Shown here one piece after another: positions 9,622-29,000 of a stretch of 64,000 nucleotides of DNA. Both the position numbers and the translations under genes were made by a program. The DNA lies in the NCBI GenBank assembly GCA_044222185.1, contig JBGANV010000001.1, forward strand, positions 1,248,001 to 1,312,000. The letters run 5' to 3'. The notes below the pieces were generated by a model. It worked only from the letters and a program-made list of their open reading frames with translations, ran no database searches and was not told the DNA's origin. Numbering within the stretch: the stretch's first letter is position 1; each line of letters begins with the position of its first letter. This stretch comes from Planctomycetota bacterium. Its GTDB lineage: Bacteria; Planctomycetota; GCA-002687715; CAIWVZ01.

Positions 9622-9625
9622 CGTA

Positions 9626-10819: not shown

Positions 10820-10897
10820 GCGGTGGTCCTTGGCCAAACTGCGTGTCCGGGTCGACACGCGTCGACGGGGCGCGAAAAGCGCGGCATAGTACGGGCC

Positions 10898-12583
10898 GTG
10901 ACACCCACCCGCAAGAAACCGAAGGCGAGCCGGCGCGCCGCGACGTCCGGCAATCGGCAAGTCGCCGGCGCGATCACCCTCACGTGCTCGATGGCCCTTT
11001 TCCTTTGGACGAGTTGCAGCGTGAACGCCAACAAAAACGCCTGGGATTCCCCCAAGACCGTCGCCGAGGCATCCAGTTACGCGCGCACGTCCACGTCCGC
11101 GGACGTCGCGGCCTTCGTCGCGGATTGCGCTGCGCACGATTCTCGCCTCGTGCCGCTCCCCATCGGGAGTTCGACCGAGGGCCGCGACGTCACGCTCGTA
11201 CTCGCGGCCGATCCTCCCGTGAGGACGATCGATGACGCCCGGCGCGACGGCCGCATCGTCGCGCTGGTGATGGCGAACATCCACGCGGGCGAGGTCGAGG
11301 GAAAAGAAGCCGTCCAGGAGATCCTGCGCGAAATCGTCCATGGCGATCACGACGCCTTGCTGCGCGACGTCATCGTCGCCTTCATCCCCAACTACAATCC
11401 CGACGGCAACGATCGGATCGACCGGCGCAACCGCCCCGATCAGGCAGGCCCCATCGAGGGAGTGGGACAACGCCCCAACGGCCAGAATCTTGACCTGAAT
11501 CGCGACTACCTGAAGGCCGAGGCGCCAGAGACCGAAGCCCTGATCCGCACCGTACGCGCACTCGATGCCGCGATCGTCGTCGACCTGCACACGACGGATG
11601 GCTCGTACCACGGCTTCGACCTCACCTACGCGGGTCCGCTCCATCCGGGCACGGATCCCGAGATCCTCGCGTTCGAGCGGCAGACGTTCCTCCCGGCGCT
11701 TCGCCTGGGGATGCGGGCCCGCGGTTTCGCGACGTTCGACTACGGCAACTGGCTCGACGAGGACAAGCCTGGCTCGGGCTGGGTGACGTTCGAGCACAAG
11801 CCGCGGTTTGGGAACTCCTACTTCGGCCTGCGCAACCGCCTCACGCTCCTGTCGGAGGCCTACAGCCACGACGTCTTCGAGAAGCGGATCGCATCCACGA
11901 AGGCTCTGGTACTCGAAGGGCTGACGATCGTCGCCGAGCGGCGAGGGCGGATTCGCGAGTTGATCGCTGGGGCCGACGCCCGAGCGGCGCGCTTGTCGGC
12001 AGACGGCGCCCGCCTCCCGACGACCGCCGAAGTCGCGCAGTCGGATCCGGCGGGCTGGATCCCCGTTGGCTCCGTTCGCGAGGAGAAGGATCCGGTCACC
12101 GGGCTCGTGCGGCAGTTCGACACCGACGTCGCGACACCGGTGCGCATGCCCGTCTTCGCCTGGTTCGACGGCGTCCGCCACCGCTCCGTTCCACCGGCCT
12201 GGGTGATCGAATCGCCGTCCGGTGCGCTCCTGCGGGTCCTGGAAATCCACGGGATCGCACACTCCCGCCTTCCCGCAGAAACCGAATGCGACGTCCGCGT
12301 TTTCCAAATCACGAAGGAAGAGATCGAGCCCCGGCCGTTCCAGGGCCATCGCCTCGCGACATTCCACGGCTCGGATCGGGTGACGAAACGGAGGCTTCCC
12401 GTGGGAGCGCTCGTCATCCCTTCGGATCAGCCGCTGGCACGCCTCTGCTTCACTCTCCTCGAACCCGAGTCCGATGATGGATTGGGGACGTGGGGCATCC
12501 TCGGCGCAACCGCAGACGCGGACGGCACGCGGCCGTTCGCAGTCATGCGCTGCGTGGATGAGAGACTCGCGACGACGCGCTGA
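10898..12583 (+). CDS. M14 family zinc carboxypeptidase, probable lipoprotein
   Basis: NIHAGEVEGKE (HxxE), NPDGN, DLNRD, VDLHTT; possible lipobox WTSC; start GTG 10898 chosen, uncertain. Confidence 0.88.
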   Translation: MTPTRKKPKASRRAATSGNRQVAGAITLTCSMALFLWTSCSVNANKNAWDSPKTVAEASSYARTSTSADVAAFVADCAAHDSRLVPLPIGSSTEGRDVTLVLAADPPVRTIDDARRDGRIVALVMANIHAGEVEGKEAVQEILREIVHGDHDALLRDVIVAFIPNYNPDGNDRIDRRNRPDQAGPIEGVGQRPNGQNLDLNRDYLKAEAPETEALIRTVRALDAAIVVDLHTTDGSYHGFDLTYAGPLHPGTDPEILAFERQTFLPALRLGMRARGFATFDYGNWLDEDKPGSGWVTFEHKPRFGNSYFGLRNRLTLLSEAYSHDVFEKRIASTKALVLEGLTIVAERRGRIRELIAGADARAARLSADGARLPTTAEVAQSDPAGWIPVGSVREEKDPVTGLVRQFDTDVATPVRMPVFAWFDGVRHRSVPPAWVIESPSGALLRVLEIHGIAHSRLPAETECDVRVFQITKEEIEPRPFQGHRLATFHGSDRVTKRRLPVGALVIPSDQPLARLCFTLLEPESDDGLGTWGILGATADADGTRPFAVMRCVDERLATTR

Positions 12584-13494: not shown

Positions 13495-14907
13495 ATGACG
13501 GAACAGTCACTCACCGACGTCAAGAGCCGCCTCGAAGACGTCCTCCGCAGCGAGGATGGGTTCGTCGAGCTCCGCTATCACTGCAAGACGACGCGCTCTG
13601 CCGCCGTGGAGAATGGCCGCGTCGAGGCGGCGACGGTGCGTCACCGCGACGGCACCGGCGTGCGAGTCATCGAGAACGGCTGCTTCGGCTACGCCTCCTG
13701 CGGGACGACCGAGCCCGCGGAGATCCGCGGCGCGATCGCCCGCGCGCGCGCCGCCGCGCGAACCTCCTCGGTCCATCGACGCGAGCGGATCGACGGTCTT
13801 GCCGCGACGGATCTGGTCCGGGGCCATTTCGAGTTGGAGGGCGTCGACGAGTGCTCTTCGCGCCCCTTCGACCAGAAGGTCGGGCTCGCACGCGAGATCG
13901 AAGCGGCGACACGAACGGCCGCCCAGTCGATCGCCTCGGCGAGCTGCGGCTACTCGGAGATATTCGAGGAGAAGGCCATCGTCACGACGGACGGTGCCAG
14001 CGCGTCCTATCGACTGGTGCGGCCCGAGTTCCGCGTCACCGCAGTCGCAAGCCGCAACGGCGAACGCCAGGTCGGGACGAGGACGGTCGGTGTGACCGGC
14101 GGGTGGTCCTGTCTGTTCAACGCGAATCCCGCGGCACGGCTGGCCGAAGAGTCGGCACGCACGGCTGTCGATCTCCTCTCGGCGCGCCGGCCCGAGGGCG
14201 GACGAACGACGGTCATCCTCGCCCCCTCGATCGTGGGCCTGCTCGTCCACGAGGCCATCGGGCACACCGTCGAAGCGGACTTCGTCAGCTCGGGCTCGGT
14301 CGCCGCGGGAAAGCTCGGCACGCGCGTCGCGAGTGACATCGTGACGTTGTGTGATTCGGGTCAGAGCGAGCTGGCCCCCGGTGCTGCGGGTTCGATTCCC
14401 GTCGACGACGAGGGTGTTCGCGCCGGCCGCACGGTGATCATCCGCAACGGAATCCTCGCGAGCTACCTGCACGATCGGGAGTCGGCAGCGCGCTTCGGTG
14501 TGAAGCCCACGGGCAACGCACGGGCTCACGCGTACAGCGACCAACCACTCATCCGCATGCGCAACACGTACCTGGAACCGGGTGAACATCGCCTCGAGCA
14601 GATGATCTCCGAGGTGAGCGACGGCTTCCTGCTGGAAGGGCCCCGGAACGGGCAAGCGGACGCCACCGGCGAGTTCATGTTCGGCGTCGAGCGTGCATGG
14701 CGCATTCGTCACGGGAAGATCACCGAACTCGTTCGCGGCGTCACGCTCTCCGGCATTGCCTTCGACGTGCTGATGACCATCGACGCCGTGAGCTCCGAGT
14801 TCCGGTGGGACCTGGGCTCGGGCTACTGCGGCAAGGGGCAGCCGGCGAAGGTCGACGCAGGCGGACCGTACGTGCGATGCCAGGCGCTGCTTGGGGGCGA
14901 TCAGTGA
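13495..14907 (+). CDS. tldD: TldD metalloprotease
   Basis: HEAIGHTVEAD (HExxxH), DDEGV, TGNARA, IRMRNTY, C-terminal CGKGQ..V..GGP; GAAGGA RBS. Confidence 0.93.
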   Translation: MTEQSLTDVKSRLEDVLRSEDGFVELRYHCKTTRSAAVENGRVEAATVRHRDGTGVRVIENGCFGYASCGTTEPAEIRGAIARARAAARTSSVHRRERIDGLAATDLVRGHFELEGVDECSSRPFDQKVGLAREIEAATRTAAQSIASASCGYSEIFEEKAIVTTDGASASYRLVRPEFRVTAVASRNGERQVGTRTVGVTGGWSCLFNANPAARLAEESARTAVDLLSARRPEGGRTTVILAPSIVGLLVHEAIGHTVEADFVSSGSVAAGKLGTRVASDIVTLCDSGQSELAPGAAGSIPVDDEGVRAGRTVIIRNGILASYLHDRESAARFGVKPTGNARAHAYSDQPLIRMRNTYLEPGEHRLEQMISEVSDGFLLEGPRNGQADATGEFMFGVERAWRIRHGKITELVRGVTLSGIAFDVLMTIDAVSSEFRWDLGSGYCGKGQPAKVDAGGPYVRCQALLGGDQ

Positions 14908-16259
14908 AGGTGGTGCGCGGAATCGACCTCCTCCCGATTGCCGACGAAGGGGTTCGCGAAGGGCGCAAGGCCGGAGCCGACGAGGTGGAGGTCTTCGTCA
15001 CACGGTCGAAATCCACGTCCGTGAGCCTGCAGAAGAACGACGTGAAGGGCGCGTCGACGGAGGAGGAGACCGTCGTCGGAGTGCGCGTGTTCGTCAACAA
15101 GGCCATGGGCTTTGCGACCATCAACGACGCGCGGCGCATCGCTCGGGTGTGCGAGGAGGCGGTGGCGCTCGCGCGCGTCGCTCCGGCGGACGAGAAGAAC
15201 GGCCTGGCGGAACCACGTCCCATCGTTCCCGTCGAGGGCCTCTGCGATCCCGTGCTGCTCGAAGCGGATGTCGCCTCGGTCGTGGACGTGGCTGCCGAGT
15301 TCCTCGATCTGGTGCGGACGCGCGACAAGCGCGTGAACGTCGACTCGGGCTCCGTCTCCGTCGACACGACGACCCGAGCGATCGCCACGAGCCGTGGCAT
15401 TCGCGCGTCGGAGGACCATGCGCACGCGGGCGGATCCCTCTTCGGCATGGCCGTCGACGGTGCGGACGTCGGTTCGTTCGACTACGACGGAGACACGGTG
15501 CGCCGCGCCGACGACTTTCGGACCGCACTTTCCGCGGCGGCGGAACGCTTCGTCATCAAGACACTCGGCGGGCTCGGAACCCAGGCCGGCGAGTCGTTCT
15601 CGGGTGCGGTGATCCTCTCGCCCGAAGTCGTGGCCGAGTTTCTCCTCGCGAACCTCCTCTCCGTGCTGTCGGCGAAGGCCGTCCGGCTGGGCCGGAGCCC
15701 GTTCGCCAAGCGCATTGGGGAGAAGATCGCCCACGCCTCCCTCTCGGTGATCGACGACCCGCGTGACGGACGACGCGCAGCATCCGTGGCCTTCGATCGC
15801 GAAGGTCAACCCACCGTCCGACGCGAACTCATCTCGAACGGGGTCCTCAACGCGTTCCTCTACGACGCATTCGAGGCTCGCTCGGCGGATACGCCCGCAT
15901 CCAGCGGCAACGCCCGCGGGAGCGCGGCGGGGCTCCCATCGATCGGCCCGTGGAACCTCATCGTCCCGGGAGGCACGATCCCGTTCGCGCGCCTGTGCAG
16001 CGAACCGCCACGCGCCGTGCTGGTCTCGCGCTTCAGCGGCACGAGCAACCCGGTGACGGGCGAGTTCTCCGGCGTCGTGAAGGGCGGGTTCCTTCTCCGC
16101 GGCGCCGACCGCGTGCCGATCAAGGAGGTCCAGATCGCAGGCAGTCTGTATGACGCCATCCAGTCGATCAGTGGGCTCTCGAAGGAAACCCGCCTGATCG
16201 AGGGCACCACCCTGGTGCCGGCCGTGCGGATCGAGAACGTCTCGATTACGGCCGGGTGA
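14904..16259 (+). CDS. pmbA: TldE/PmbA partner subunit
   Basis: GADEVEVF, FDREG, GNARGS, NPVTGEFSG, IAGSL; no HExxH; GTGA overlap with tldD. Confidence 0.9.
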   Translation: MKVVRGIDLLPIADEGVREGRKAGADEVEVFVTRSKSTSVSLQKNDVKGASTEEETVVGVRVFVNKAMGFATINDARRIARVCEEAVALARVAPADEKNGLAEPRPIVPVEGLCDPVLLEADVASVVDVAAEFLDLVRTRDKRVNVDSGSVSVDTTTRAIATSRGIRASEDHAHAGGSLFGMAVDGADVGSFDYDGDTVRRADDFRTALSAAAERFVIKTLGGLGTQAGESFSGAVILSPEVVAEFLLANLLSVLSAKAVRLGRSPFAKRIGEKIAHASLSVIDDPRDGRRAASVAFDREGQPTVRRELISNGVLNAFLYDAFEARSADTPASSGNARGSAAGLPSIGPWNLIVPGGTIPFARLCSEPPRAVLVSRFSGTSNPVTGEFSGVVKGGFLLRGADRVPIKEVQIAGSLYDAIQSISGLSKETRLIEGTTLVPAVRIENVSITAG

Positions 16260-16292: not shown

Positions 16293-18905
16293 TCACCGAT
16301 TCGTCGGTCCGAGCAGCAGCGCGTTGGCGACGAGCTTGAACCAACCCGGGCTTGCGCCGCGAAAGAGCGGGTCCTCGGTGAATGCGACGACGAGTCCAGG
16401 GTTCAGGCGGCGCTCGATGAGGATGGGCGCCTGTTTGACGAGCGCCGCCTTCGGGGGCGGCAACTGCCCGGAAAGGAGGAGCCCATCGCCCTCCGTGAGC
16501 CTCGCCCACACCTCGCCTTTCTCCCCCTCGGGCAGGTCGTAGAACGCGCGTCCGCGAAGCTGAACCGGCAGTTCACCATCGAGTCCGCGCGTCAGCCACC
16601 CTCCGCCGTCGATCGTCGCGCGCACGATCGGGCCATGGAGCGTCGCGAGACGATCGCTCGCTGCCCGCACGTTCAACTCGAGAACGCCACGCTCCTTCTT
16701 CGCGAGGTACTGAGTGGCTCCGCGGAACGAAACGACGACGCCGCCACGCCCGAGGAAGGCCTTCACGTCCTCGTACGGGAGCGCCTTCTCCCACGCATCG
16801 GCCGATCCATCGGGAAGCACGAGCACGTTGGCCTTCTCCAGCGCCGTGCGGATCGGGCGATCGACTCCGACGCAGGTGTGGCGCGCATGAAGTTCCGTCT
16901 CCAGGAACCACCGGATCGCGCCCGCCGACGGGGCCTCCGCCGGCGGTCCGAACGCGACCACGATCGACGGCTCGACGACGGGCTTCGCGTGGCGACTTCC
17001 CAGGTCCGAGCCAAGCTCCGTGCGCAGGCTGTCCGCGACGTCGAAGGTCAGGCCCAGTTTGCGCGCCACGCGTCTTGCCGTCTCGTACCGCCCGCCCTCC
17101 GCGTTGGGCTCGGGAAGAACGACGAGCGTTCCCGGCCCGAAGCTCTTACCGCCCGTCGAGAAGGCGAAGTCCGTGACGCGGACCCGGACTCCGGCCGCAA
17201 GGAGCCCTGCGAGGAGCCGGGAACTCGAGAAACGGTGGCCCGGGAAGATCAACGCGCCCGACGTCCGTGAGTCCGTCGGCTCCGATTCGGCGCGCCGCGA
17301 CTGTGCGCTCGGGGCCGGCTCGCGTTCCGGCACGAGCACCGCGCCCGTGACGTTGGCCGTCCGGTATCCGCCCACGCCGAACAGCAGAGGGAGATTCCAC
17401 GCAGTGACGTCGTAGATCTCGCTCGCCTCCTTGCGATCGAGGTGCCGCGCCTCGCGCTCGACGAAATCCGGCGCGAGTTCGTTCCGCGGGTCGAGCAGGG
17501 TCATCACGAGCGCACGGAACGATTGTGCCACGGGGACGATTCGCGTTCCCGGCGCGAGCGTGACCTTCGACGACGGCCCGCCCTGGATGGGCACGACGTC
17601 CGCAGTCCACGCTCGGTCGAGGCGCGAGACCGCGATGCCACACCGCTGCAACGTCGCAGCCAGGCGATCGACGAGATCGGGATCGCGGAGCGCGGCCAAG
17701 ACGAAGAACGGTGATTCATCGTGCTCCGCCGCTGCGCGCTGTGCCTCCACGTGCTCGGCCTGGAGGCGAAAGAGATCCGCCTTGCGAGCTCCGGCCGTCT
17801 CGATCGTCGTCAGGCACGCCGTCGCATGGTGGAGGACGGCATCGCGAAGAGTGAGCGTGCTCCCGTCGTCGCGCCGGAGTGCCGCGCCCGAGGGGCTTGC
17901 CTGCTCGAACGTCATGGCGACGGCCCCACAGAAGAGCGGAAACGAACCGCCGAAGCCCGGATAGTCCAGCGGGAACACGTCCTGCGTGAAATAGGACCAC
18001 CGATGCGCGTCGAAGGCGCGAGAGATGGCGTCGCCGAAGATGCGCCAGCGAGCCTTCACCTGCTCCGATGTGTGCGGGTTCAACGGCTCTGCCGGAGGCG
18101 CCGACACGAAGTAGCTCTCGTTTCCGCCCATCTCGTGGACGTCGACGACGACCTGCGGCATGAGTCCCAGGTAGAACGCGACACGGGCTCGCGACTCCGT
18201 CTGGTTCTGGAGGAACCAGTCGCGATTGAGATCGAACAGGTCGTGGCTCACGCGCCCCCCAGGCCACGGTTGCTGATGATCCCACGCCAACGGCTCGCGT
18301 TGGGTTTCCCGGCTTGCGCGATCGTTGACGAGCGTGACGAACCGATCGCGTCCATCGGGGTTCTGCGCGGGGTCGATCACGACCACCACGTCGTCGAGCA
18401 GGCGTCGCGTCTCGGGGCGCTCGTCGGCGGCCAGATGATAGAGCAGCGCGGCTGCGGCCTCGCCACCTGAGGCTTCGTCCCCGTGCACGCCCATGGCGAC
18501 GTAGACGGTGATCGGTCCCGATGAGTCGTCCTTCGTCGCCTCGCGAGCGCGGGCACGGTTGCGCTCGGCGATCTCCGCCTTGCGGGCCAGGTTCTCCGGC
18601 GACGAGACGAACACGGCGACGAGACGGCGTCCACCGCTCGAACGCCCGTAGTCGACGACGCGCACGCGCTCGGTCGCGCGCGCGACCGCCTCGGCGTAGC
18701 GCACGAGGTCGCCACTTTCCGTGTAGCGTTCGCCCAGGCCGTGGCCGAGCACGTTCTCGGGCGTGGGGATCGCCACGGTGTAGCGCGGCCGGCTGCCAGG
18801 CGAGCCCGACGTGAGTTCGTCGAAGAACGCCTGCTGCGACCAGACCGGAAACGAAGCGACGAGGGCCACGAGCACCGCGAACGCGGATTGGAAACGGCGG
18901 CACAT
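16293..18905 (-). CDS. Secreted M14 zinc carboxypeptidase with C-terminal GATase-like domain
   Basis: Signal peptide; GVHGDEASG, NPDGRDR, FDLNRDW, VDVHEMG; C-terminal VLVLPDG...FLGRGG...DPLFRG. Confidence 0.9.
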   Translation of the reverse strand: MCRRFQSAFAVLVALVASFPVWSQQAFFDELTSGSPGSRPRYTVAIPTPENVLGHGLGERYTESGDLVRYAEAVARATERVRVVDYGRSSGGRRLVAVFVSSPENLARKAEIAERNRARAREATKDDSSGPITVYVAMGVHGDEASGGEAAAALLYHLAADERPETRRLLDDVVVVIDPAQNPDGRDRFVTLVNDRASRETQREPLAWDHQQPWPGGRVSHDLFDLNRDWFLQNQTESRARVAFYLGLMPQVVVDVHEMGGNESYFVSAPPAEPLNPHTSEQVKARWRIFGDAISRAFDAHRWSYFTQDVFPLDYPGFGGSFPLFCGAVAMTFEQASPSGAALRRDDGSTLTLRDAVLHHATACLTTIETAGARKADLFRLQAEHVEAQRAAAEHDESPFFVLAALRDPDLVDRLAATLQRCGIAVSRLDRAWTADVVPIQGGPSSKVTLAPGTRIVPVAQSFRALVMTLLDPRNELAPDFVEREARHLDRKEASEIYDVTAWNLPLLFGVGGYRTANVTGAVLVPEREPAPSAQSRRAESEPTDSRTSGALIFPGHRFSSSRLLAGLLAAGVRVRVTDFAFSTGGKSFGPGTLVVLPEPNAEGGRYETARRVARKLGLTFDVADSLRTELGSDLGSRHAKPVVEPSIVVAFGPPAEAPSAGAIRWFLETELHARHTCVGVDRPIRTALEKANVLVLPDGSADAWEKALPYEDVKAFLGRGGVVVSFRGATQYLAKKERGVLELNVRAASDRLATLHGPIVRATIDGGGWLTRGLDGELPVQLRGRAFYDLPEGEKGEVWARLTEGDGLLLSGQLPPPKAALVKQAPILIERRLNPGLVVAFTEDPLFRGASPGWFKLVANALLLGPTNR

Positions 18906-19029: not shown

Positions 19030-19046
19030 TTGGCCCCGCGCTTGCT
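19030..19046 (+). promoter_or_regulatory. Sigma54 (-24/-12) promoter candidate for the repeat protein
   Basis: TTGGCCCCGCGCTTGCT, exact GG-N10-GC, 80 nt upstream of ATG 19126. Confidence 0.6.
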
Positions 19047-19125
19047 ATGTTCCCCCCCATCGAATCGACGACGGCCATGCCGCCGCCCATTCCGCCTGGC
19101 GCTCGCGCGCCGAAAGGAGCACACG

Positions 19126-20166
19126 ATGTGGTTCGCCCTTCTCGCTCTCGCCGGCATGACCCCAGTCAGCGCCGGCCCGCGCCCTGAGTGCCCGCCAGGC
19201 TACGTCGTCCAGGAAGTCGTCGTCCCGGTCTGGGAACCGGCACGCTACCAGCGCGTCGAGAAGCAGGTCTGGGTCGCGCCGGTCATCTGCAAGCGAACCG
19301 TCGACGAGTACGTTCCGCCGCGTTACGTCGACGTGCCAGAGCGCATCTTCGTTCCGGCGCAGTACCAGACGGTCGAACGGAAGGTCTGGATCCCGCCCGC
19401 CTTCGAGATGAAGGAGCGTCGCGTCTGGATCCCCATCGAGTACACGACGAGCAAGGTGACCGAGTGGGTTCCCGCTCGATTCGAAACCGTCGAAGAGCAG
19501 GTCTTCGTGCCGGCCACGTTCCACTGGGAAGTGGTGAAGGTGCCCGTCGAACCGATCTACGACGTGCAGGAGAAGAAGGTCTGGGTCGAGCCGCAGTTCA
19601 AGAAGGAGCTGAAGAAGTCCTTCGACCCCGTGACGAAACGCCCGGTCGTCGAGGAAGTCCAGGTGCAGGTCCCCGGCACCGGCGTTTGGCGTGTGGACAA
19701 GGTGAAGGTCCCCCGCCCCGGAACCGGTGGGTTCCGCGACGAGCGCCGCCAGGTCCAGGATCCGGGAACCGGGTGCAACAAGACCGTCCGGAAACAGGTG
19801 CAGGTCCCGGGAACCGGGTGCAACGTGAGCCGCGAAGTCCGCGTCCAGGTCCCCGGGACGGGCTGCTATCGCAACATCCAGGAGCGCTGCCAGGTCGCCG
19901 GCACTGGGGTCTGGACGAATCAGTGCGAGCAGGTGCTCGTCGCCGGCACGAACGTCTGGGTCGAGCGCCTCGTCCGCAAGCAGGTCGAAGGCACGGGCAT
20001 CACCGTGCGGCGCGAGATCGAGGAGACCCAGCCCGGCACTGGCGTGTGGAAGACGGTCTGCGAAGACGTCCTCATTCCTGGGACCGGGTGCTACGTGCAG
20101 AAGGTCGAGTACCGCGTCGTCCCCGACCCGCACCACCACGGCCACGGGCACGGTCGCGGCCGGTGA
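19126..20166 (+). CDS. Secreted Val/Pro-rich beta-repeat protein with His/Gly tail
   Basis: AAAGGAG RBS; signal peptide MWFALLALAGMTPVSA; 13-aa VWVPxxY repeats then 15-aa VQVPGTGxW repeats; HHHGHGHGRGR end. Confidence 0.85.
   Translation: MWFALLALAGMTPVSAGPRPECPPGYVVQEVVVPVWEPARYQRVEKQVWVAPVICKRTVDEYVPPRYVDVPERIFVPAQYQTVERKVWIPPAFEMKERRVWIPIEYTTSKVTEWVPARFETVEEQVFVPATFHWEVVKVPVEPIYDVQEKKVWVEPQFKKELKKSFDPVTKRPVVEEVQVQVPGTGVWRVDKVKVPRPGTGGFRDERRQVQDPGTGCNKTVRKQVQVPGTGCNVSREVRVQVPGTGCYRNIQERCQVAGTGVWTNQCEQVLVAGTNVWVERLVRKQVEGTGITVRREIEETQPGTGVWKTVCEDVLIPGTGCYVQKVEYRVVPDPHHHGHGHGRGR
19228..20097 (+). repeat. Intragenic tandem repeats: 10 x 39 bp units then 10 x 45 bp units
   Basis: Recurring gtctgggtc/atc-ccg at 39-bp period and caggtccc(c/g)gg(c/a/g)ac(c/g)gg at 45-bp period. 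Confidence 0.85.
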
Positions 20167-20182: not shown

Positions 20183-21403
20183 TCACAGCCCGATGAGGAC
20201 GTCGAGCGCCGGTGAGAATCCCGTGGTGGTCGCCGAGCGGTTGGCCGCCTGCAGGTAGAGGTGCGACCCCACGAGCGCAGGGTTGTTCGGAACGAACACC
20301 TGCGCGGAAGACTGGGTGCCCATCTCGGCGATGAAGTCCGGTGACACACGGAGAGCGCAACCGCTGAAACCGTAAGGGGCGAGGCTCATCGGGAGCACAC
20401 CCGCCGAGGAGATCGTGTTCGAATTGCCGAACGCGACGGTGTGCAGGTAGAGCGCCGACCCGGACACCTGGACGGTGAACGTGCTCCCGAGCGTGGGCGC
20501 ACCGGCGACGCTCAGCGTCGTCCCGTTGCACCCCGTGCCGAAGGTCGATGGCGGGACGTAGTAGTCGAACGCGTTCGACAGCGTCCCCGTCCCTCCCGGC
20601 CCCGTCACGTTGATCGACGTCCACCCGCTCGCATTCGGCGGAGCGTCCACCGAGAGAGTCGTCCCATTGATGACCGTGAACGTCGCCGGAGTCGAGCCGA
20701 ACGTCACCGCGGTCGTTCCCGTGAAATTCGAGCCGCTGATCACCACGGCAGCAGCTCCGGTCGTCGGCCCGTGATTGGGCAGCACGGCCGCAACGACGGG
20801 CGCCGTCACCGGCGCGAGCGCGACCAGCTGCACGTTGTCGATCATCCAGCCCGTCCCGCTGTTCCCGATCCCATCCGCCGTGAAATAGAAGCGGAGCTTG
20901 ATCGCCGTTCCCGGTGTCGCAGTGAACGTGTGGCTGCGCTGCGCATTGAATCCGATGGCGGGCGCTGACGGTGTGACCGGCGTCCAGAACGGGGCGGTGA
21001 ACGGCGCGTAGACGCGGTAGGCAACCTGGGCCGTGTCGCCCGTCGGGTCGACGCCAAGCCAGCAGGTGTAGTTGATCTGATAGGTTCCGCTCCCGGTGAG
21101 CGTGATCAGCGGCGAGATGAGCTCGCCACCGGTTGCCACTCCCTGCCCAGCGGAATAGCTACATGTCGCGGAGGTGGTGTTGTACGCGGCCGTCATGCTC
21201 GTGGAACCACAGGTCCCGGGGCCAGCGATGTGCCACAAACCGCTGGCGTAGTTGTTGACTGTCCACCCCGAGATCCCCCCTTGGAAATTCTCGCTGAAGA
21301 GCGTTGTCTGGCTCGGAGTGAGGCTCGCGACGATGGCGATCACTGCACTCGACCAAATCCCCAGCCGCACCGAGCCCATGGCGCGCTTCGAGTCCGTCTT
21401 CAT
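20183..21403 (-). CDS. Secreted modular protein: MAM/jelly-roll-like domain, IPT/TIG domain, Cys-containing C-terminal domain
   Basis: FSENF..G.SGW...LISP.ITL...LRFYF...GWMIDNV; IPT motif P..GP.TG...V.ISGSNF...VTFG; C-terminal FGTGC...VPNNPALVG...Q. Confidence 0.8.
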   Translation of the reverse strand: MKTDSKRAMGSVRLGIWSSAVIAIVASLTPSQTTLFSENFQGGISGWTVNNYASGLWHIAGPGTCGSTSMTAAYNTTSATCSYSAGQGVATGGELISPLITLTGSGTYQINYTCWLGVDPTGDTAQVAYRVYAPFTAPFWTPVTPSAPAIGFNAQRSHTFTATPGTAIKLRFYFTADGIGNSGTGWMIDNVQLVALAPVTAPVVAAVLPNHGPTTGAAAVVISGSNFTGTTAVTFGSTPATFTVINGTTLSVDAPPNASGWTSINVTGPGGTGTLSNAFDYYVPPSTFGTGCNGTTLSVAGAPTLGSTFTVQVSGSALYLHTVAFGNSNTISSAGVLPMSLAPYGFSGCALRVSPDFIAEMGTQSSAQVFVPNNPALVGSHLYLQAANRSATTTGFSPALDVLIGL

Positions 21404-21537
21404 CTGGCCACCCTTCCCAGCGAGTAGCGAGTTCCCAACAAGCAGGCTTTGACGCGCCCGATGATGCCAGAAAAACTCCGACCGAGTACCCTGGGCGCGC
21501 CACACATTTCACCATCGAAGCCATAGAGCACCCGCCG

Positions 21538-24500
21538 ATGAAATTCCGCAACCTCCGCACTCTGACGTTCGTCGCCCTCGCCGCATGGTCGGCGCTCGGG
21601 CAAGGCGACCTCCCGGCGCGACTGCCACCCGAGAACGGACCGCAATCGATGGAGGTCGGATGGCACGTCCTCCGCGGAGGCACGGTCCACCTGGACTCCG
21701 AACGGACCATCGAGAAGGGTGTCGTGGAGATTCGTGACGGCCGGATCGTGCGCGTGGGTCCGGCGAGCGAGCCGGTCGCAGGCATCGGCGCCCGTGAATG
21801 GGACACCACCGGGCACCACATTTATCCTGGCCTGATAGAGAGTTACATCGAAGTGGATGCACCCGCACCTGACGCGCAATCGGGCGGTGTGCACTGGAGT
21901 GCGAAGGTCACGCCCCAGCGCTCGGCCCTCGACGGCAAGGGGTTGGACGCGAAGACGGCCGACGCCCTTCGGAGGCTCGGCTTCTGCGCCGCCGCCATCT
22001 CCCCGAAGGGAGGGGTGTTCCGAGGGCGGGCCGCCGTCGTGTCGACGGAGGACCCGACCCCGGAGCCATCCCGCGCAGGCCCCGCGGTACTCAAGGAGGA
22101 CGTCTATCAGTCCGTCGGAATGAGCGTGTCATTCTCATTTGGCGACCCCCCTGCCACGCCGGGGACGGCGCCACGGACGGAGGCATGGCCGGCCTACCCA
22201 TCGTCGCTCATGGGGACGATCGCCGTGATCCGGCAGACGCTGCTGGACGCGGACTGGGCGGCGCGCGTCGGGAAGGCGATCGGCCCGAACGCCGACGTCG
22301 GTGCCCTCGGCCACCTGGACGGCGCCAGGCCCATCCTCTTCGACGTCGCCGACGAGCAGGACGTCCTGCGCGCCGGCAAGCTCGCGGCGGAGTTCCACCG
22401 AACGGGGATCGTGCTGGGCACCGGTCGGGAGTTCCGGCGCCTGTCCGCCATCGCGAAATCCCGACTGCCGATCATCGTCCCACTCGACTTCCCCGATCGG
22501 CCGAAGGTCTCGTCCGTCAGCGACGGCGAGGCCGTCGACCTCCGCGAGATGATGAGCTGGGAACAGTCACCGACGAACCTGCGCCGCCTCGTGGCAGCGG
22601 GCGTCCAGGTCGCGATCACGTCCAGCAAACTTCGCGACCGCTCGAAGTTCCGCGAGAACCTCCGCCTCGCGATCCGCAACGGTCTGAGTGAATCCACGGC
22701 GCTCCGCCTCCTCACCGTCGTGCCCGCGACGATCCTCGGGATCGAGCGCGTAGGCACGCTCGACCCGGGCAACCGTGCCAACGTCCTGGTCACCGACGGC
22801 CCTCTCTTCGGCAAGGACGCGAAGATCCGCGACGTGTGGATCGACGGCCGGCGCCACGAGATCACGCCGCCCAAGGAAGAAGTGCCCCGCGGCGACTGGT
22901 CCGTGACGATCGCGGGCCCCAAGGTCCCCTCGCTCGAACTCGGCGTTCAGCCCGAAAACAAGCTCGGGCTGCGGTCGGGCGATCAGAAGTCCCAGGCGAA
23001 GGACGTCCGCCTCGACCAGGGCCGACTGGAGTTCGTCGCAGAGCTTCCCGGCGTCGCGGGCGCGCTCGCGAGTTTCTCCGCCGTGCTCGACGGCGATCGC
23101 CTGGTGGGCACCGTTCGCCTCGCGGACGGGTCGCTCTCACCGTGGAGCGCGTCGAGGATCGCGGGATCGGAGACGCGTGCTGCGGAGTCGCGTGAGGCGG
23201 AGTCCCGCACGTCGTCACGAAGGTCGAACGAGAGCGGCCCGTCGACGCGCGCGGCATCGCGTCCCAGCTCCAAGCCTGACGACGACGCGCCCGTGACCGA
23301 CGTCCCCGAGACGTTCGGTCATCCATTCGGGCCGTACGCCCATGCGGACCTTCCCCTGCGCCGATACTCCGTGCTGCTGTCGGGGGCGACCGTCTGGACG
23401 TCGGGACCGCAAGGCGTGATCGAGAACGGGTTCGTGCTGCTCGAGAGCTCGCGCATCAAATACGTCGGCGCGCGTCGCCCAACGGATCTCCCCGCCGTGA
23501 CGGTGGAGATCGACTGCCGTGGCAAGCACGTCACGCCGGGTCTCATCGACTGCCACTCGCACACTGGGATCGCTCGCGGCGTGAACGAGGGCGGCGAAGC
23601 CGTGAGCGCCGAGGTCCGCGTCGAAGACGTCACGGATGCCGACGCCATCTCCTGGTATCGACAGCTGGCGGGCGGCATCACGACCGTGAACTCGCTCCAC
23701 GGATCCGCCAACGCCATCGGCGGACAGAACTGCATCAACAAGAACCGCTGGGGCGCGATCCGCGCCGACGACCTGCACTTCCGTGGCGCGCCGCCCGGCA
23801 TCAAGTTCGCCCTCGGCGAGAACCCGCGCGGCGCCAACTCACCGCCGGAACGCCAGGGCAATCCGCGATACCCACAGACGCGACTTGGGGTCGAAGCGCT
23901 CATCCGTGACCGGCTCACGGCCGGGCGGGATTACGCCGCTGCATTCGAGCGATGGCGCGCCGCTGGCCGCCCTGCCGCGTCGGAGCCCCGCCGGGACCTC
24001 GAACTCGACGCCATGGCGGAGATCCTGGCGGGGACCCGCCTCGTGCACTGTCACTCCTATCGTCAGGACGAGATCCTCATGCTGTGCCGCCTGTCGCAGG
24101 AGTTCGGCTTCAAGCTCGGCACCTTCCAGCACGTACTCGAGGGCTACAAGGTGGCCGACGCCATCAAGGAGACGTCGCGCGGCGGCTCCACGTTCTCCGA
24201 CTGGTGGGGTTACAAGCTCGAGGTCCAGGATGCCATTCCGGAGAACGGCGCGATCATGCATGAAGTCGGCGTGACCGTCAGCTTCAACTCCGACTCGGAT
24301 GAACTCGCTCGCCGAATGAACCTCGAGGCGGCAAAGGCCGTGCGGTACGGACACGTCACTCCGGAGGAGGCGCTCAAGTTCGTGACGATCAACCCCGCGC
24401 GACAGCTCGCGATCGACGCGACCGTCGGATCGCTCGAAGCGGGCAAGGACGCGGACCTCGTCATCTGGAGCGGGCACCCGCTTTCGGTCTCGACGAAGGC

Positions 24501-24744
24501 CGAGCAGACTTGGGTCGATGGTCGGCCGTATTTCACGCTCGAACGCGACGCAGCGATGAGGAAGACGATCGCGGATGAGCGCACCAGACTGGTGCAGAAG
24601 ATCCTCGCGAGCGCCAAGGACGGCCCCGGGGACGCACCGCCCGACGGAGGCCCACCCGGCGGGCCCGGGGGCCGACGTCGACGACCGACCGATCACGACG
24701 TTCGCGGGGATTGCGGGTGCTCGGAGGTGGACGCCCATGAATGA
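21538..24744 (+). CDS. Secreted tandem amidohydrolase (degenerate N-terminal barrel, intact C-terminal barrel)
   Basis: YPGLIESY (no HxH) in domain 1; TPGLIDCHSH, KFALGEN, HCHSY, FQHVLEG, NSD, GSLEAGKDAD in domain 2. Confidence 0.9.
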   Translation: MKFRNLRTLTFVALAAWSALGQGDLPARLPPENGPQSMEVGWHVLRGGTVHLDSERTIEKGVVEIRDGRIVRVGPASEPVAGIGAREWDTTGHHIYPGLIESYIEVDAPAPDAQSGGVHWSAKVTPQRSALDGKGLDAKTADALRRLGFCAAAISPKGGVFRGRAAVVSTEDPTPEPSRAGPAVLKEDVYQSVGMSVSFSFGDPPATPGTAPRTEAWPAYPSSLMGTIAVIRQTLLDADWAARVGKAIGPNADVGALGHLDGARPILFDVADEQDVLRAGKLAAEFHRTGIVLGTGREFRRLSAIAKSRLPIIVPLDFPDRPKVSSVSDGEAVDLREMMSWEQSPTNLRRLVAAGVQVAITSSKLRDRSKFRENLRLAIRNGLSESTALRLLTVVPATILGIERVGTLDPGNRANVLVTDGPLFGKDAKIRDVWIDGRRHEITPPKEEVPRGDWSVTIAGPKVPSLELGVQPENKLGLRSGDQKSQAKDVRLDQGRLEFVAELPGVAGALASFSAVLDGDRLVGTVRLADGSLSPWSASRIAGSETRAAESREAESRTSSRRSNESGPSTRAASRPSSKPDDDAPVTDVPETFGHPFGPYAHADLPLRRYSVLLSGATVWTSGPQGVIENGFVLLESSRIKYVGARRPTDLPAVTVEIDCRGKHVTPGLIDCHSHTGIARGVNEGGEAVSAEVRVEDVTDADAISWYRQLAGGITTVNSLHGSANAIGGQNCINKNRWGAIRADDLHFRGAPPGIKFALGENPRGANSPPERQGNPRYPQTRLGVEALIRDRLTAGRDYAAAFERWRAAGRPAASEPRRDLELDAMAEILAGTRLVHCHSYRQDEILMLCRLSQEFGFKLGTFQHVLEGYKVADAIKETSRGGSTFSDWWGYKLEVQDAIPENGAIMHEVGVTVSFNSDSDELARRMNLEAAKAVRYGHVTPEEALKFVTINPARQLAIDATVGSLEAGKDADLVIWSGHPLSVSTKAEQTWVDGRPYFTLERDAAMRKTIADERTRLVQKILASAKDGPGDAPPDGGPPGGPGGRRRRPTDHDVRGDCGCSEVDAHE

Positions 24745-26068
24745 TCGCACCAGAGTCGCGCTCGTCGTCACGCTCGTGCTCGCGTCTGCGGGCAGCGCCC
24801 AGGACCTGGGAGTGAAGGCCGCGGCCCAGAGAGCCCCGGTCGTGCTCACCCATGCAATGATTCACCCGGTCACAGGCCCCGTCATCGAAGATGGAGCGCT
24901 GCGTTTCGAGTCCGGAAAGATCACCGCCGTCGGCAAGGTGGAGCCGTCGGCCAAGGACACCGTGATCGACGTCCGCGGCCACCACGTCTACCCCGGACTG
25001 ATCGCCTGCTGGACACGCCTCGGGCTCACGGAGTTCGACGAGGTCCGCCAGTCCATCGATCATTCGGAGACCGGTGAGTACACGCCCGAGGTGAAGGCCG
25101 CAGTCGGCGTCAACGCCGACTCGACCCTCTTCCCCGTGACGCGCTCGAACGGCGTTCTGCTTGCAGGAGTCGTGCCCGGCGGCGGAACCATCGCCGGCCG
25201 CATGAGCGTCCTGCAGCTCGAGGGCTGGACGTGGGAGGAGATGACCGTGCTCGACGTGGGCGGACTCGTGGTGAACTGGCCCGCGGCGCGGCGCTCACCG
25301 TTCGGCTTTGGGGCCACCGGTGCGGATGCAGACTCGGCACGCGAGTCGAATGCCGCGATCACCAGACTCGACGCCTACTTCTCCGCTGCGAGGGCGTACG
25401 CGTTCTCACGCGCGGTCGATCCGTCCACGCCGTCGAACATCCGATACGACGCCATGGCGGCGGTCTGGGCGTCGAAGTTCTCGGCCGCGCGCCCCGTGTT
25501 CATCACCGCGGAGACGCTGGCGCAGATCGAGGCGGCCGTCGCGTTCGGAGCGCGCCACTCGCTCTCCGTCGTGATCGTCGGCGGCCGCGACGCGCCGTTG
25601 TGCGCCGAGCTGCTGCGCGCCCGCAAGGTCCCCGTCGTCGTTCCGGGCACCCACCGCCTTCCCCGCCGCGGGGACTCGCCCTACGACGAATCCTTCACTC
25701 TCCCGGCGCGGCTCGAGGCCGCGGGAATCACGTGGTGCCTCGCCAGCGGCGAGGAGACGCCCCACGAGCGCAACCTCCCCTTCAACGCCGGAATGGCCAC
25801 GGCTCACGGGCTGTCACGCGAGGCGGCCCTTCGTGCGATCACGCTCGCACCGGCACAGGTGCTGGGCATCTCGGATGGGTTCGGCTCCATCGAGGTCGGC
25901 AAGTCCGCGACGATCTTCATGACGGATGGCGATCCGCTGGAGATCATGACGCAGACGAAGCGCGCGTGGATCGCGGGCCGGGAGATCGACCTCGCCAACA
26001 AGCAGACCCACCTCGCGGAGAAATACCGGACGAGATACCGGCAGCGCGCCCTGCTCTCCGACAAGTGA
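24737..26068 (+). CDS. Secreted amidohydrolase-fold partner protein lacking HxH
   Basis: Signal peptide; YPGLIACWTRLGLTE, ALRAITLAPAQVLG..GSIEVGK.A; overlaps upstream stop. Confidence 0.88.
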   Translation: MNDRTRVALVVTLVLASAGSAQDLGVKAAAQRAPVVLTHAMIHPVTGPVIEDGALRFESGKITAVGKVEPSAKDTVIDVRGHHVYPGLIACWTRLGLTEFDEVRQSIDHSETGEYTPEVKAAVGVNADSTLFPVTRSNGVLLAGVVPGGGTIAGRMSVLQLEGWTWEEMTVLDVGGLVVNWPAARRSPFGFGATGADADSARESNAAITRLDAYFSAARAYAFSRAVDPSTPSNIRYDAMAAVWASKFSAARPVFITAETLAQIEAAVAFGARHSLSVVIVGGRDAPLCAELLRARKVPVVVPGTHRLPRRGDSPYDESFTLPARLEAAGITWCLASGEETPHERNLPFNAGMATAHGLSREAALRAITLAPAQVLGISDGFGSIEVGKSATIFMTDGDPLEIMTQTKRAWIAGREIDLANKQTHLAEKYRTRYRQRALLSDK

Positions 26069-26078
26069 CGGTCACACC

Positions 26079-29000
26079 ATGACGGACCAGACGTTGGGCG
26101 GAGCGGCGCCAGATCCATCGGCACGACCATGGGACACCGGAATGGAGACGGTCCGGCGTTGCTGGCAGGAGACCGTCCTCGCCGGTGCCGACTGGCGCTC
26201 TCAGGCCGTCGAGGCCTCCTACGGGAGGAGGCCGCCTGACGCCGCCACGGCCATCGAGCTCGCCACGCTACGGCTGTCGACGAATCCCCCACCCAGCGAC
26301 GTGCCCGCGACGCCTGCCGCCGCCGGCTACGACTTGCTGGAGGAGATCGGGCGCGGCGGCATGGGCGTCGTCTATCGTGGACGGCAGCGCAACCTCGACC
26401 GCGACGTCGCCGTCAAGACCATCTCCCCGAAGCTCGGCGACCGGATGGTCGCGCACTTCGTGACCGAGGCGCGAGTCACGGGCTCCCTCTCGCACCCGAA
26501 CATCCTGCCCGTCTACGATCTCGGCGTCGGAGACGACGGCAAGCCGTTCCTCGCCATGAAGCTCGTCGGTGGCCGGCCCTGGAGCGCCCTCCTCCACCCG
26601 AAGACGGAGAGCGACGAGGCTGCCGCGCTGGCACTCGACTTCCCCGCGCACCTGGGAATCCTCATCGCCGTGTGCAACGCCGTCGCCTACGCGCACCAAA
26701 GCGGCGTGATCCATCGCGATCTGAAGCCGAGCAACGTGATGGTCGGCGAGTTCGGCGAGGTCCTGCTCATGGATTGGGGCCTCGCGCTGAAGCTGGACTC
26801 GCGGTCGCAGGCACATGCGGAATCAGGTCCCGTGGGAACGCCCGTGTACATGTCGCCGGAACTCGCCGTGGGTGACGTCCCGGGGCATGGGCCGTGGACC
26901 GACATCTACCTTCTCGGCGGCATCCTCCACGAGATCATCTCGGGGCGTCCGCCCCACGGTCATTCGACGCTCCCCGAAGTGATCGACGCGGCGATCCGCA
27001 GTTCGCCGCCATCGTTCACCGACGAGACTCCCCTCGAGCTCCAGCAGATCTGCAGCCGCGCCATGGCCCGCGATCCGCGCGAGCGACACCCGTCGGCCAT
27101 CGCGTTCCGGGACGCGCTCACGGCATTCCTGCGGCATCGGGAAAGCATCGCCATCTCGGACTCTGCACGAGGCCGCCTGCAACGGTCCCGCTCGAAGGCG
27201 GAGTCCGACGAAGCGGTCCGTCACGAGGGATTCAGCAGGGCCGTCGCCGGGTTCGAGCAGGCCCTGGTGCTGTGGCCTCAAAACCCGGAGGCGATCTCGG
27301 GCCTCGCTGCGGCGCGCCTCGACTGGGCAGGCGCGGCCTTGGCCGCTGGTGATCTCGCGCTCGCCGAAGCGCAGCTGCGCTCTCTCGCCGTCGATGACGA
27401 GCGCGTCGCCACGACGACTCGCGCCGTCGCCGTCGCGCGCGACCGGCGCTTGCGAGCGACCGAACATGCGAGGCGCACGAAGATCGCGCTGATCGCCGCC
27501 GGCCTCCTGCTGTTCGCGAGCGTTGCCACGGGATTGATCGTCGTCTCGATCGAGCAGGGACACACACGGCGCGCACTCGAAGGCGAGAGCGCCGCCCGCG
27601 GCCGCGCCGAGCAACGGGCTGTGGACATCCGCAAGCTCACGCAGTCGCTCGTGTACGAGGTCCACGACGCCGTGGAGAAGCTCCCCGGAGCGACGCCCGT
27701 GCGCGCCACGCTGGCGGCGCGGGCCGTCGAGGTACTGGACAAGCTCGCTGCGGAATCGACGGACGACCCAACGCTCATCGCAGAATTGTCGGCGGCCTAC
27801 GAGCGCGTGGCGGCCGTGCAGGGGCACAGCCTCACGGGGCATCTGGGTCAGGCTTCGGAAGCGCTGAAGACGTTCGAGAAGGCCCTCGCCTTGCGGACGC
27901 GCGCCGCAACGCTCGCGCCGGCGAACGAGGACAACCAACGGGCCGTCGCAATCGTGAATCGACTGATCGGCGAAGCCCTCGTCCGCCTCGACCGCATGCG
28001 CGAGGCCCACGAGCACTACGAGGCCGCGCAGAAGCTCATCGCGGCAGTCGAGGCACGGAACCCCGATCACCCGCTCGTGCTCCGCGATCGAGCGGGCATT
28101 CTCGAGCGCCGGGCCGACCTCGCGAAGGCCGAAGGGCGAATCGTGGAAGCGCTCGAGATCCAGCGCGAATGCACGCGCATCGCCAACCGCATCCTCCAAC
28201 TGAAACCCGGTGATCCGGAGGCGAAGGCCGACCTGACGGGTTCGCTGCTCGGCGAAGCGCAGCTCCTGTGGCTCACGGGACGGGCCGGCGAATCGATCGA
28301 CGTCGCACGCCGCACCGTCGCGATGCAGCAGGAACTCCTCGCGGCCGCACCCAACGACGCCGAACGGCGCCGAAGCCTCACCATCAGCCTGGAGGCACTC
28401 GCCGAGGGGCTCGTGAGTCAGGGCCAGATGGACGAAGCCATCAAGATCGACCGCAACGTCGTCACGGCTCGGCGCAAACTGTCGACGGACGACCCGGCGA
28501 ACGTGCAAGCACGGTCGGATCTCGGAAGCGCTCTCTTCCATCTGGGCGACGCGTTGATGAAGGTCAGCGAATTCAACGAGGCGATGGCTGCCTACAAGGA
28601 ATGGCAGGTCGTCGCCAAGGAATGCGCCGCGCTCGACCCCGGGGATTCCCAGTTCCAACGGGACGTGGTCCTCTCCGACCTCTTCGCGGCCCAGGCGCAG
28701 CTTGCCCTCGGCGACCCGGCCGGCGCGAATGCCGTGCTCGGGCGCGCACTCGAGAACGCCGAGAAGCGGACTGCGGCCGAACCCAAGAACGCGAATTCCG
28801 CGCTGGATGCGGTTCAGATCCGGATCCGTCGCGCGGAGGCCTTCACCGCACTCGGGGACGATTCGTCGGCGGTCGCCGAGCTCGAGCGAGGCCTGGGCTA
28901 CTTCCTGCCGTTCGGGGACCTCGGCGGAAACTTCGCCGCGCTGCGTCGCACGCGAGCACACCTGCTCGAGCGCTACGGCGACCTGCTCCAGACCGCCGGC

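Follow-up and report, generated by a model that had tools for sequence, protein, structure and literature searches.

Thin β-sheets that lack a hydrophobic core can be stable and rod-like, as shown by the G5-E rods of SasG and the central sheet of OspA, although SasG is not a fold-back hairpin. The chains of the T4 gp37 tip needle run out and back, and gp37 is a trimer. In Planctomycetia, the YTV-domain proteins (PF07639) are cysteine-rich proteins of the cell wall (Hieu et al. 2008, as cited in PMC8567305 and PMC12673574), and the accessible portions of those two papers do not describe their fold. Here we analyze a gene of a Planctomycetota bacterium (assembly GCA_044222185.1, contig JBGANV010000001.1) that encodes P0001, a protein built of two different short repeats. 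The gene occupies positions 19126-20166 of the window, by which we mean the whole 64,000-nucleotide stretch of DNA that was analyzed (about 67% G+C, from a genome of 7.08 Mb in 16 contigs). The reading we favor, with somewhat better than even confidence, is that P0001 is an exported, sigma54-controlled repeat protein that folds as a single fold-back, kinked, two-stranded β-ribbon.

Among planctomycete families that have a name, the YTV proteins come nearest to P0001. P0001 resembles them in belonging to the same phylum, in its probable export and in having valine/threonine-rich short β repeats with cysteine. It differs from them in having two different repeat types and in not being cysteine-rich (9 Cys, or 2.7% of the mature protein). 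The PF07639 profile matched neither P0001 at E ≤ 10 nor any of 10 relatives at E ≤ 1; a PF07639 search of the source genome was also empty, but the control was equally silent, hence that search is uninformative. A second family with a similar motif is the WXXGXW repeat (PF12779), which has no known structure or function and which, in the accessible part of PMC8078820, appears only in a table. Its W-V-P-G-x-W motif resembles the kinks of P0001, and a distant relative, P0013, scored 17.9 bits against a cut-off of 18; P0001 and its orthologue P0002 gave no match to PF12779. Pfam and NCBIfam searches with P0001 gave nothing meaningful (hmmscan at E ≤ 10 returned only LacZ_4, at 0.053). Searches of the PDB by sequence gave no match for the single sequence and no significant match for a profile, and in the ESM Atlas the best clusters were unnamed and scored 0.80, under the level regarded as meaningful. 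Literature searches outside the subscription journals found no paper on the family or its architecture. The P0001 family is undescribed and is known so far from a few Planctomycetota.

The gene and its product are laid out as follows.

19126-20166 (+): coding sequence of P0001, 346 aa plus stop (translation of 19126-20163).
19126-19176 (+): hydrophobic leader, residues 1-17, MWFALLALAGMTPVSAG, a probable but atypical signal peptide without a basic n-region.
19177-19200 (+): N-terminal tail with Cys22, residues 18-25, the site of C-H-x-x-C in relatives.
19201-19623 (+): N arm, residues 26-166, with 11 strands and 10 kinks at a period of 13 (motif script and AlphaFold2 model).
19624-19641 (+): predicted hairpin-tip loop DPVTKR, residues 167-172, the gap between model strands 158-166 and 173-181.
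19642-20124 (+): C arm, residues 173-333, with 11 strands and 10 P-G-T-G kinks at a period of 15, holding 7 of the 9 Cys.
20125-20163 (+): His/Gly/Arg tail, residues 334-346, DPHHHGHGHGRGR, at the end where the predicted hairpin is open; relatives have C, CC or CCH as their last residues.

By script, the N-arm kink motif (a hydrophobic residue, V/I/E, P/A, any two residues and an aromatic) recurs at residues 36, 49, 62 and onward to 153 with an exact period of 13, and the C-arm motif [P/A/E]GT[G/N] recurs at 183, 198 and onward to 318 with an exact period of 15, in both cases without an indel. The original prediction, made from the sequence without database searches, had described ten units of each kind. 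All ten of its N-half hexamers were recovered at the exact period and its ten 15-residue units were likewise confirmed; one correction concerns the rungs, since 10 kinks divide each arm into 11 strands and the paired arms would therefore have 11 rungs and not 10. A short Pro/Cys segment separates the 17-residue leader from the N array. The last N motif ends at residue 158 and the first PGTG is at 183, which leaves 24 residues between the arrays, and the AlphaFold2 loop at 167-172 falls inside the central turn KSFDPVTKRP that had been proposed. The Cys residues (22, 55, 217, 232, 247, 255, 267, 312 and 322) do cluster in the C half, as had been noted. The protein tail reads VVPDPHHHGHGHGRGR and the C-terminal end PDPHHHGHGHGRGR. 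At the DNA level the repeat units are 60-83% alike and a tandem DNA array is found only at the His/Gly tail, which argues that the repeats are old and have been conserved as protein. The leader contains a hydrophobic core and S-A-G, AlphaFold2 places a helix at residues 2-9, and three of nine relatives (P0004, P0005 and L005) have classic KK/RR leaders. On these sequence features, P0001 is likely exported.

Relatives were sought with HMMER among 1.8 billion representatives, which returned 36 proteins at E ≤ 0.001. Five of these (P0007, P0012, P0016, P0019 and P0038) were rejected, being on reading unrelated eukaryote-type low-complexity repeats. Both repeat types are present in few proteins, namely P0002, P0004, P0005 and the fragment P0031, plus the orthologues found in genomes and a metagenome. 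P0004 is the same gene as that of locus L017, whereas P0002, which is cut by a contig end, and P0031 are truncated and were not scored for arm counts. Within the order, orthologues were found in 3 of 22 other genomes (G013, G007 and G019) and none in the four genomes of the same family as the source; elsewhere in the phylum they occur in G061 and G134, and one more is on metagenome contig L013. Identity is 35-45% and the architecture is the same throughout these five other genomes and the one metagenome contig. Across the phylum 17 of 401 genomes matched at E ≤ 1e-6, mostly to a wider family discussed below. Many long spurious open reading frames overlap the region in other frames, and the P0001 frame might itself have been a chance product of 67% G+C DNA or a low-complexity sequence. 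We consider this possibility negligible, given that orthologues of only 35-45% identity retain the architecture in all six places, that the ribosome-binding site and promoter are conserved, that the units differ in DNA yet keep their protein motifs and that contigs from RNA libraries match the gene.

In the ribbon that we favor, the chain would run out along the N arm through 11 short strands and 10 'V-W-V-P-x-x-Y' kinks, at 13 residues per unit, make a tight central hairpin and return along the C arm through 11 strands and 10 'P-G-T-G' kinks, at 15 residues per unit. With the strands numbered 0-10 from the start of each arm, N-arm strand k would lie antiparallel beside C-arm strand 10-k. Each PGTG kink would stand opposite one P-x-x-aromatic kink, two of the PGTG residues forming a bulge that would absorb the difference between 15 and 13, and the conserved V/W/V beside each kink would face the V(C)/W/V of the partner arm. 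At the variable positions, hydrophobic residues of one strand would tend to have charged residues of the other opposite them, with few pairs of like charge. The product would be an 11-rung ribbon with about 140 residues per arm, and its open end would be closed by the termini, through C-H-x-x-C with C/CC(H) in relatives and through Cys22 with the His-rich tail in P0001. If straight, 11 rungs of about 10 residues would span 35-45 nm.

The evidence that carries this reading begins with the arm counts. The original prediction had named unequal gain or loss of N- and C-half repeats among homologues as its refutation. We counted kinks by anchor motif and period (the regular expression missed N9 and N10 of P0001 and gave five false or double matches, which were corrected by use of the 13/15 period). 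The prediction survived this check. All eight full-length proteins had as many kinks in one arm as in the other, at five different counts: the ratio of N to C kinks was 10:10 in P0001 and L004, 9:9 in L005 and L006, 8:8 in L013, 7:7 in L016 and 5:5 in P0004 and P0005. The truncated P0002 has 6 regular N units and at least 6 C units. Independent duplications of whole arrays would not produce matched counts of two different unit types in close orthologues; a mirror, one-to-one pairing would.

The arm counts also bear on a competing fold. Here the kinks would be no more than common tight turns, each arm would be a meander of local hairpins and the arms would pack together compactly as a two-layer sheet, a barrel or a solenoid. 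We regard this as distinctly unlikely. It draws on the fact that PGTG and P-G/P-x-x-aromatic are strong turn formers and on the 8-12-residue strands with alternating valines, which a compact fold would bury. A meander needs no equality of N and C counts, yet the counts were equal in eight of eight proteins. Two sheets packed face to face would also give equal counts, but the central sequence has the look of a genuine hairpin within one plane (L-I-E-N-G-Q-I-K in L004, for instance). The center between the arrays is 22-24 residues long in seven of nine proteins (six by script and P0001 by hand). That of L013 has 54 residues, in which the innermost units of both the N and the C arm seem to survive in decayed form, and that of P0002 has a charged, probably helical insert at the tip.

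Irregularities are matched across the center as well. The only length irregularity between kinks occurs in L016, where both arms gain two residues: N4 and N5 lie 15 residues apart, and C3 and C4 lie 17 apart. The two longer spacings are mirror partners, which implies that both strands of one rung are two residues longer. An irregular kink pair, N9/C2, with an extra Pro in 'V-x-V-P-V-x-P' plus 'G-T-G-G', is common to P0001 and L004. The two VKVP copies of P0001 (residues 137-140 and 193-196), which had been offered as a mirror-symmetric feature, do flank this same kink pair (N-kink 9 and C-kink 2) but do not face one another. The other feature so offered, CKRTVDE (55-61) opposite VRREIEE (294-300), held up, with K56 facing E299 and D60 facing R295 in mirror register. 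At the termini, six proteins (L004, L005, L006, L013, L016 and P0004) combine C-H-x-x-C at the N-terminal end (C-x-x-C in L016) with C, CC or CCH at the C-terminal end, each motif lying about 10 residues beyond the last kink of its own arm. P0005 has neither motif, and P0001 has Cys22 and the His-rich tail.

The mirror register was also assessed residue by residue. The N strand was anchored at the kink that follows it and the C strand at the kink that precedes it, with both being read away from the kink. The profiles anchored in this way were alike: I/V, W/F, V ... V ... Y/F for the N arm and C/V/I, W, V ... V ... L for the C arm. Mirror partners were compared with partners shuffled within each protein, pooled over 63 rungs and with 5000 shuffles. 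Like-charge pairs were half as frequent as in the shuffled sets (17 observed versus 34.3 +/- 4.6, with 0 of 5000 shuffles as low) and hydrophobic-charged pairs were in excess (185 versus 146 +/- 8.4, with 0 of 5000 as high), both effects being strongest when the partner shift and the register shift are 0. Opposite-charge pairs (39 versus 34.1) were not significantly enriched, and charge complementarity alone was significant only in P0001 (13 versus 1.9 +/- 3.9, P = 0.002) and L004 (P = 0.011). Taken together, these pair frequencies indicate that the arms are coupled position by position, as a checkerboard of valine against long charged side chains. Such a pattern would suit a ribbon exposed to water on either side, and OspA and SasG have single-layer sheets of similar construction.

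From the single sequence, AlphaFold2 gave a model with a predicted local distance difference test score (pLDDT) of 37, which was unusable. Given a seven-row alignment (A4), the model had a pLDDT of 70.8, with 234 residues at 70-90, and a predicted template modeling score (pTM) of 0.24. Its N arm is divided into 11 strands by breaks of 3 residues and its C arm into 11 strands by breaks of 5-6 residues. Two stretches of the model have low confidence, 97-110 and 233-250, and these pair with each other in the mirror register (the rung table places 97-110 onto about 237-252). Foldseek found 0 matches in the PDB at E ≤ 0.001; the weak rows were phi29 and Andhra tail proteins and the lysenin and epsilon-toxin pores, with template modeling scores of 0.06-0.15 and root-mean-square deviations of 30-50 Å. 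A Foldseek-independent comparison with 48,161 chains gave three with Z ≥ 2, the best at 2.5, where models typically reach 7-8. Two of the three were the two-stranded β arms of HU-type proteins (Z 2.0-2.5), aligned over 37-43 residues that span the model range 54 to 300. So few residues covering this range place the stretches near 54 and near 300 side by side, and residues 54 and 301 are predicted partners in mirror register. Arms of the HU/IHF type are the only solved structures matched by the model; they have about 10 residues per strand versus about 140 and no sequence relation to P0001. The AlphaFold2 model is an extended two-stranded ribbon in mirror register, as far as a prediction can tell, and not a compact sandwich or solenoid. 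A complex prediction of the N arm (18-166) with the C arm (167-336), made with A4 and without controls, scored 0.18 and 0.17 against a mark of 0.32 and is evidence neither way.

A compact β fold normally has many structural neighbors, which contrasts with a best Z of 2.5 among 48,161 chains. Moreover, local hairpins leave unexplained the mirror-placed two-residue indel, the avoidance of like charges specific to partner and register and the mirror dips in pLDDT. The claim that the two halves pair antiparallel and unit for unit about a central turn is thus supported by the equal arm counts, the mirror indel, the co-occurring terminal Cys/His motifs, the AlphaFold2 model and the charge avoidance.

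Several points weigh against the fold-back ribbon. To our knowledge, a free two-stranded ribbon of this length has no solved precedent. P-G-T-G and P-x-x-aromatic are classic tight-turn sequences, and the single-sequence AlphaFold2 model (pLDDT 37) drew consecutive local hairpins at 293-331, as a meander would have. The pairing in the A4 model was deduced from the symmetry of pLDDT and from residues joined by the aligner, in a model with a pTM of 0.24 and seven alignment rows. In the pooled pair statistics, hydrophobic-hydrophobic pairs were depleted (145 observed versus 160.3 +/- 4.3 shuffled) and a combined hydrophobic plus charge score ran contrary to mirror pairing (-18 versus +14.6 +/- 13.9 shuffled). 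Splitting the score showed that the contrary value arose because hydrophobic residues face charged ones; these two results rule out a simple zipper of matched hydrophobic residues. Protein by protein, the partner effects were significant only in P0001, L004 and L005 (like-charge P = 0.002, 0.004 and 0.014, respectively), which are orthologous, so that the three results are not independent. L006, L013, L016, P0004 and P0005 individually gave no significant partner effect, and in L016 like-charge pairs were slightly more frequent than expected (6 versus 4.4). The P0001 leader has no basic residue, and no conserved operon partner or neighboring gene hinting at function was found across the relative loci.

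In the mirror register of P0001 no Cys faces another Cys, which leaves those of the C arm free for intermolecular bonds, metal or nothing. Cys directly follows the PGTG kink in 22 of 63 C-arm units, though never in L016 and P0005. Unpaired Cys beside the C-arm kinks would be available for cross-links between molecules, which might form a disulfide-linked fiber. More broadly, the fold-back hairpin might be only a subunit, its chains bundling or cross-linking into a needle, sheet or wall layer. This we consider unlikely. The number of Cys residues is odd, none is paired in register and many stand right after a kink, the valines would be exposed on both faces, and the tail is rich in His. Needles of gp37 bind metal through His, and the T4 gp37 tip is made of three fold-back chains. 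Cysteine-rich repeat proteins occur in planctomycete wall preparations, according to the accessible portions of PMC8567305 and PMC12673574. However, the hydrophobic/charged checkerboard suggests that the faces are exposed to solvent, two family members (L016 and P0005) do without the post-kink Cys and Cys makes up only 2.7% of the mature protein.

The exact 15-residue period with its P-G turn is also a property of the triple β-spiral shafts. The C half might then be a trimeric shaft of the adenovirus/reovirus fiber type, with the N half as a separate domain, an interpretation that we find very improbable. A profile of four orthologues touches the adenoviral fiber chain 8on5_A over residues 212-295, but its E value of 0.042 is not significant and the single sequence matches nothing. 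Such shafts were absent from both the Foldseek rows and those of the Foldseek-independent comparison. A shaft would leave the matched numbers of N and C units and the mirror features unexplained, and a search for a protein with only the C arm found none among proteins of 190-606 aa, returning P0005 only.

The fold-back ribbon may extend beyond the close orthologues. A profile search gave 154 further proteins, some of which are small exported proteins with 13-residue 'V-W-V-P-x-x-Y' units. The peptidoglycan-binding domain PF01471 was present in 65 of 120 of the profile matches listed (counted by hand), which share the unit motif; those PF01471 proteins that were read have lipoprotein-like leaders and 'I-P-A-x-Y-x-T-V' repeats. 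Both groups have the unit motif and the 13-residue period in common with P0001, and in both the repeat part belongs to no Pfam family. The small proteins have a central hairpin with a turn of the R-x-V-D-x-x-G type, as do the 5:5 and 7:7 PGTG proteins, and many have basic or His-rich C-terminal tails. They differ from P0001 in having 3-6 units per arm rather than 10 and a C arm of the 13-14-residue type rather than the 15-residue PGTG type. The PF01471 proteins differ in that they look like tandem modules and have two parts that P0001 lacks, a lipoprotein-like leader and a domain that binds the wall. Counted by eye and with knowledge of the hypothesis, about 18 of 24 small proteins had equal numbers of kinks on both sides, 6 were ambiguous and 0 were clearly unequal. 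An automatic kink counter applied to 67 wider-family proteins of at most 300 aa gave a difference between N and C counts of 0 in 28, +/-1 in 26 and more in 13; as it mis-segments clear cases such as P0008, its counts were not used.

Several other features of these proteins were seen on reading. In the PF01471 proteins of Pseudomonadota (P0039, P0041, P0053, P0078, P0120 and P0133) there are at least two modules of about 70 residues, each of which begins with a Cys ('E-C-Y-A-R-V' or 'M-C-L-V-E-I'), continues with 'I-P-A-x-Y-x-T-V' units, three in number, and closes with a Trp. In the 5:5 relatives (P0004, P0005 and P0031) the hairpin is followed by a further C-terminal domain of roughly 110 residues, which in P0004, and in no other, gives a weak match to LPP20 (E = 0.0015, 19.3 bits against a cut-off of 25.9). 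A basic tail that ends in Arg (GRGR, RRGR, RSTR or HRHR), often after a His-rich stretch, is found in many family members (P0001, P0003, P0005, P0006, P0008, P0009, P0013, P0014, P0017, P0021, P0023 and P0040) and might act as a signal for sorting, processing or binding. The source genome has one other match, at G000:C16:404089-404316 (-) (locus L002; E = 0.005, 33% identity over residues 70-159), which may be a small member of the wider family.

As to role, the ribbon would be a long, thin and fairly stiff element of the envelope or surface, such as a spacer, strut or fiber subunit. By analogy, the domain company of the PF01471 relatives suggests that the repeat serves in the envelope, where it would act as a spacer that holds an anchor and the wall apart. 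The functions originally proposed for P0001, those of ruler, strut and metal binder, are conjecture. A bolder version of the ribbon, which we put forward tentatively and think unlikely to be right, is that P0001 is a free-standing monomer, a kinked ribbon tens of nm long with no hydrophobic core, and the longest member of a large unrecognized 'hairpin-of-repeats' envelope superfamily to which the peptidoglycan-binding lipoproteins of Pseudomonadota would also belong. The length of the arms would then fix a distance within the envelope, making these proteins a β counterpart of the helical Lpp ruler. Such a monomer would be held together by backbone pairing, Trp/Val clusters at the kinks, the valine/charge checkerboard and a Cys/His clasp at the open end.

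Upstream of the gene are two elements that bear on its expression.

19031-19046 (+): sigma54-type -24/-12 element TGGCCC-N5-TTGCT, TGGCCCCGCGCTTGCT, which agrees with the consensus at 10 of 11 positions and lies 95 nt upstream of the start codon.
19114-19119 (+): Shine-Dalgarno AAGGAG, 6 nt before the ATG.

The strong ribosome-binding site of the original prediction is thus in place, and the sigma54-type promoter gained support from the relatives. A -24/-12 element (8-11 of 11 positions) lies 66-72 nt before the start codon in four of five examinable relative loci (L004, L006, L013 and L017), that of L017 being perfect at 11/11. No such element was found upstream of the repeat gene of L005, and L016, which runs off its contig upstream, was left out of the comparison. 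With P0001 included, the element is conserved in five of six loci at -66 to -95. The conservation matters because the P0001 match alone is weak: a looser sigma54 pattern occurs twice in the window versus 1.4 expected. Elements as good as those at the conserved places are, however, scarce, since the 128 kb formed by both strands of the window contain only 65 sites scoring at least 8 and only 11 scoring at least 9. The genome encodes one rpoN-type Sigma54_DBD match and 14 Sigma54_activat matches, none of them inside the window. The nearest of the 14 activator domains is at G000:C1:1239288-1239791 (+), about 27 kb before the gene. Judged by its conservation, the sigma54 promoter is real, but it says only that expression of the repeat gene would be conditional, with production of the protein waiting on a sigma54 activator to be turned on. 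Four metatranscriptome libraries of two studies yielded contigs identical to 19100-19566, with the C half of the gene and both neighbors uncovered. They show neither transcription starts nor levels and might stem from DNA carry-over, hence they are only a hint of transcription.

The flanking genes, which encode an M14-type peptidase and a TIG-domain protein, lie on the opposite strand, so that the repeat gene stands alone. The following neighbors were noted.

20183-21505 (-): convergent gene for an exported TIG/IPT-domain protein, ending 16 nt past the repeat-gene stop, a gap that leaves no room for separate terminators.
9479-12583 (+), 14697-16259 (+), 16296-18905 (-), 21538-24744 (+) and 24575-26068 (+): large predicted peptide-degrading enzymes around the gene, comprising two M14 carboxypeptidase-like proteins (about 870-1030 aa), one TldD/PmbA metallopeptidase and two amidohydrolases.
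26079-29939 (+): 1286-aa Ser/Thr protein kinase with many TPR repeats.

In L004 (2482-3909, -) and L006 (2010-3260, -) the repeat gene is followed immediately by a convergent open reading frame of 416-475 aa, homologous between the two loci; the window has no counterpart at this position.

The architecture of P0001 is unusual and well supported, at the level of a prediction. If the fold-back ribbon is true, it would be a protein architecture without a solved example, in which 13- and 15-residue repeats are kept exactly equal in number because each unit pairs structurally with one of the other type. It would also provide a simple rule, testable on sequences, that applies to the many exported repeat proteins of Planctomycetota and Pseudomonadota that lack annotation. 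The conserved sigma54 promoter offers a route to function via conditional expression, and protein designers might take an interest in a natural, length-tunable and core-less β scaffold. For the biology of these bacteria, the ribbon would give a concrete picture of thin β rods of adjustable length in the cell envelope.

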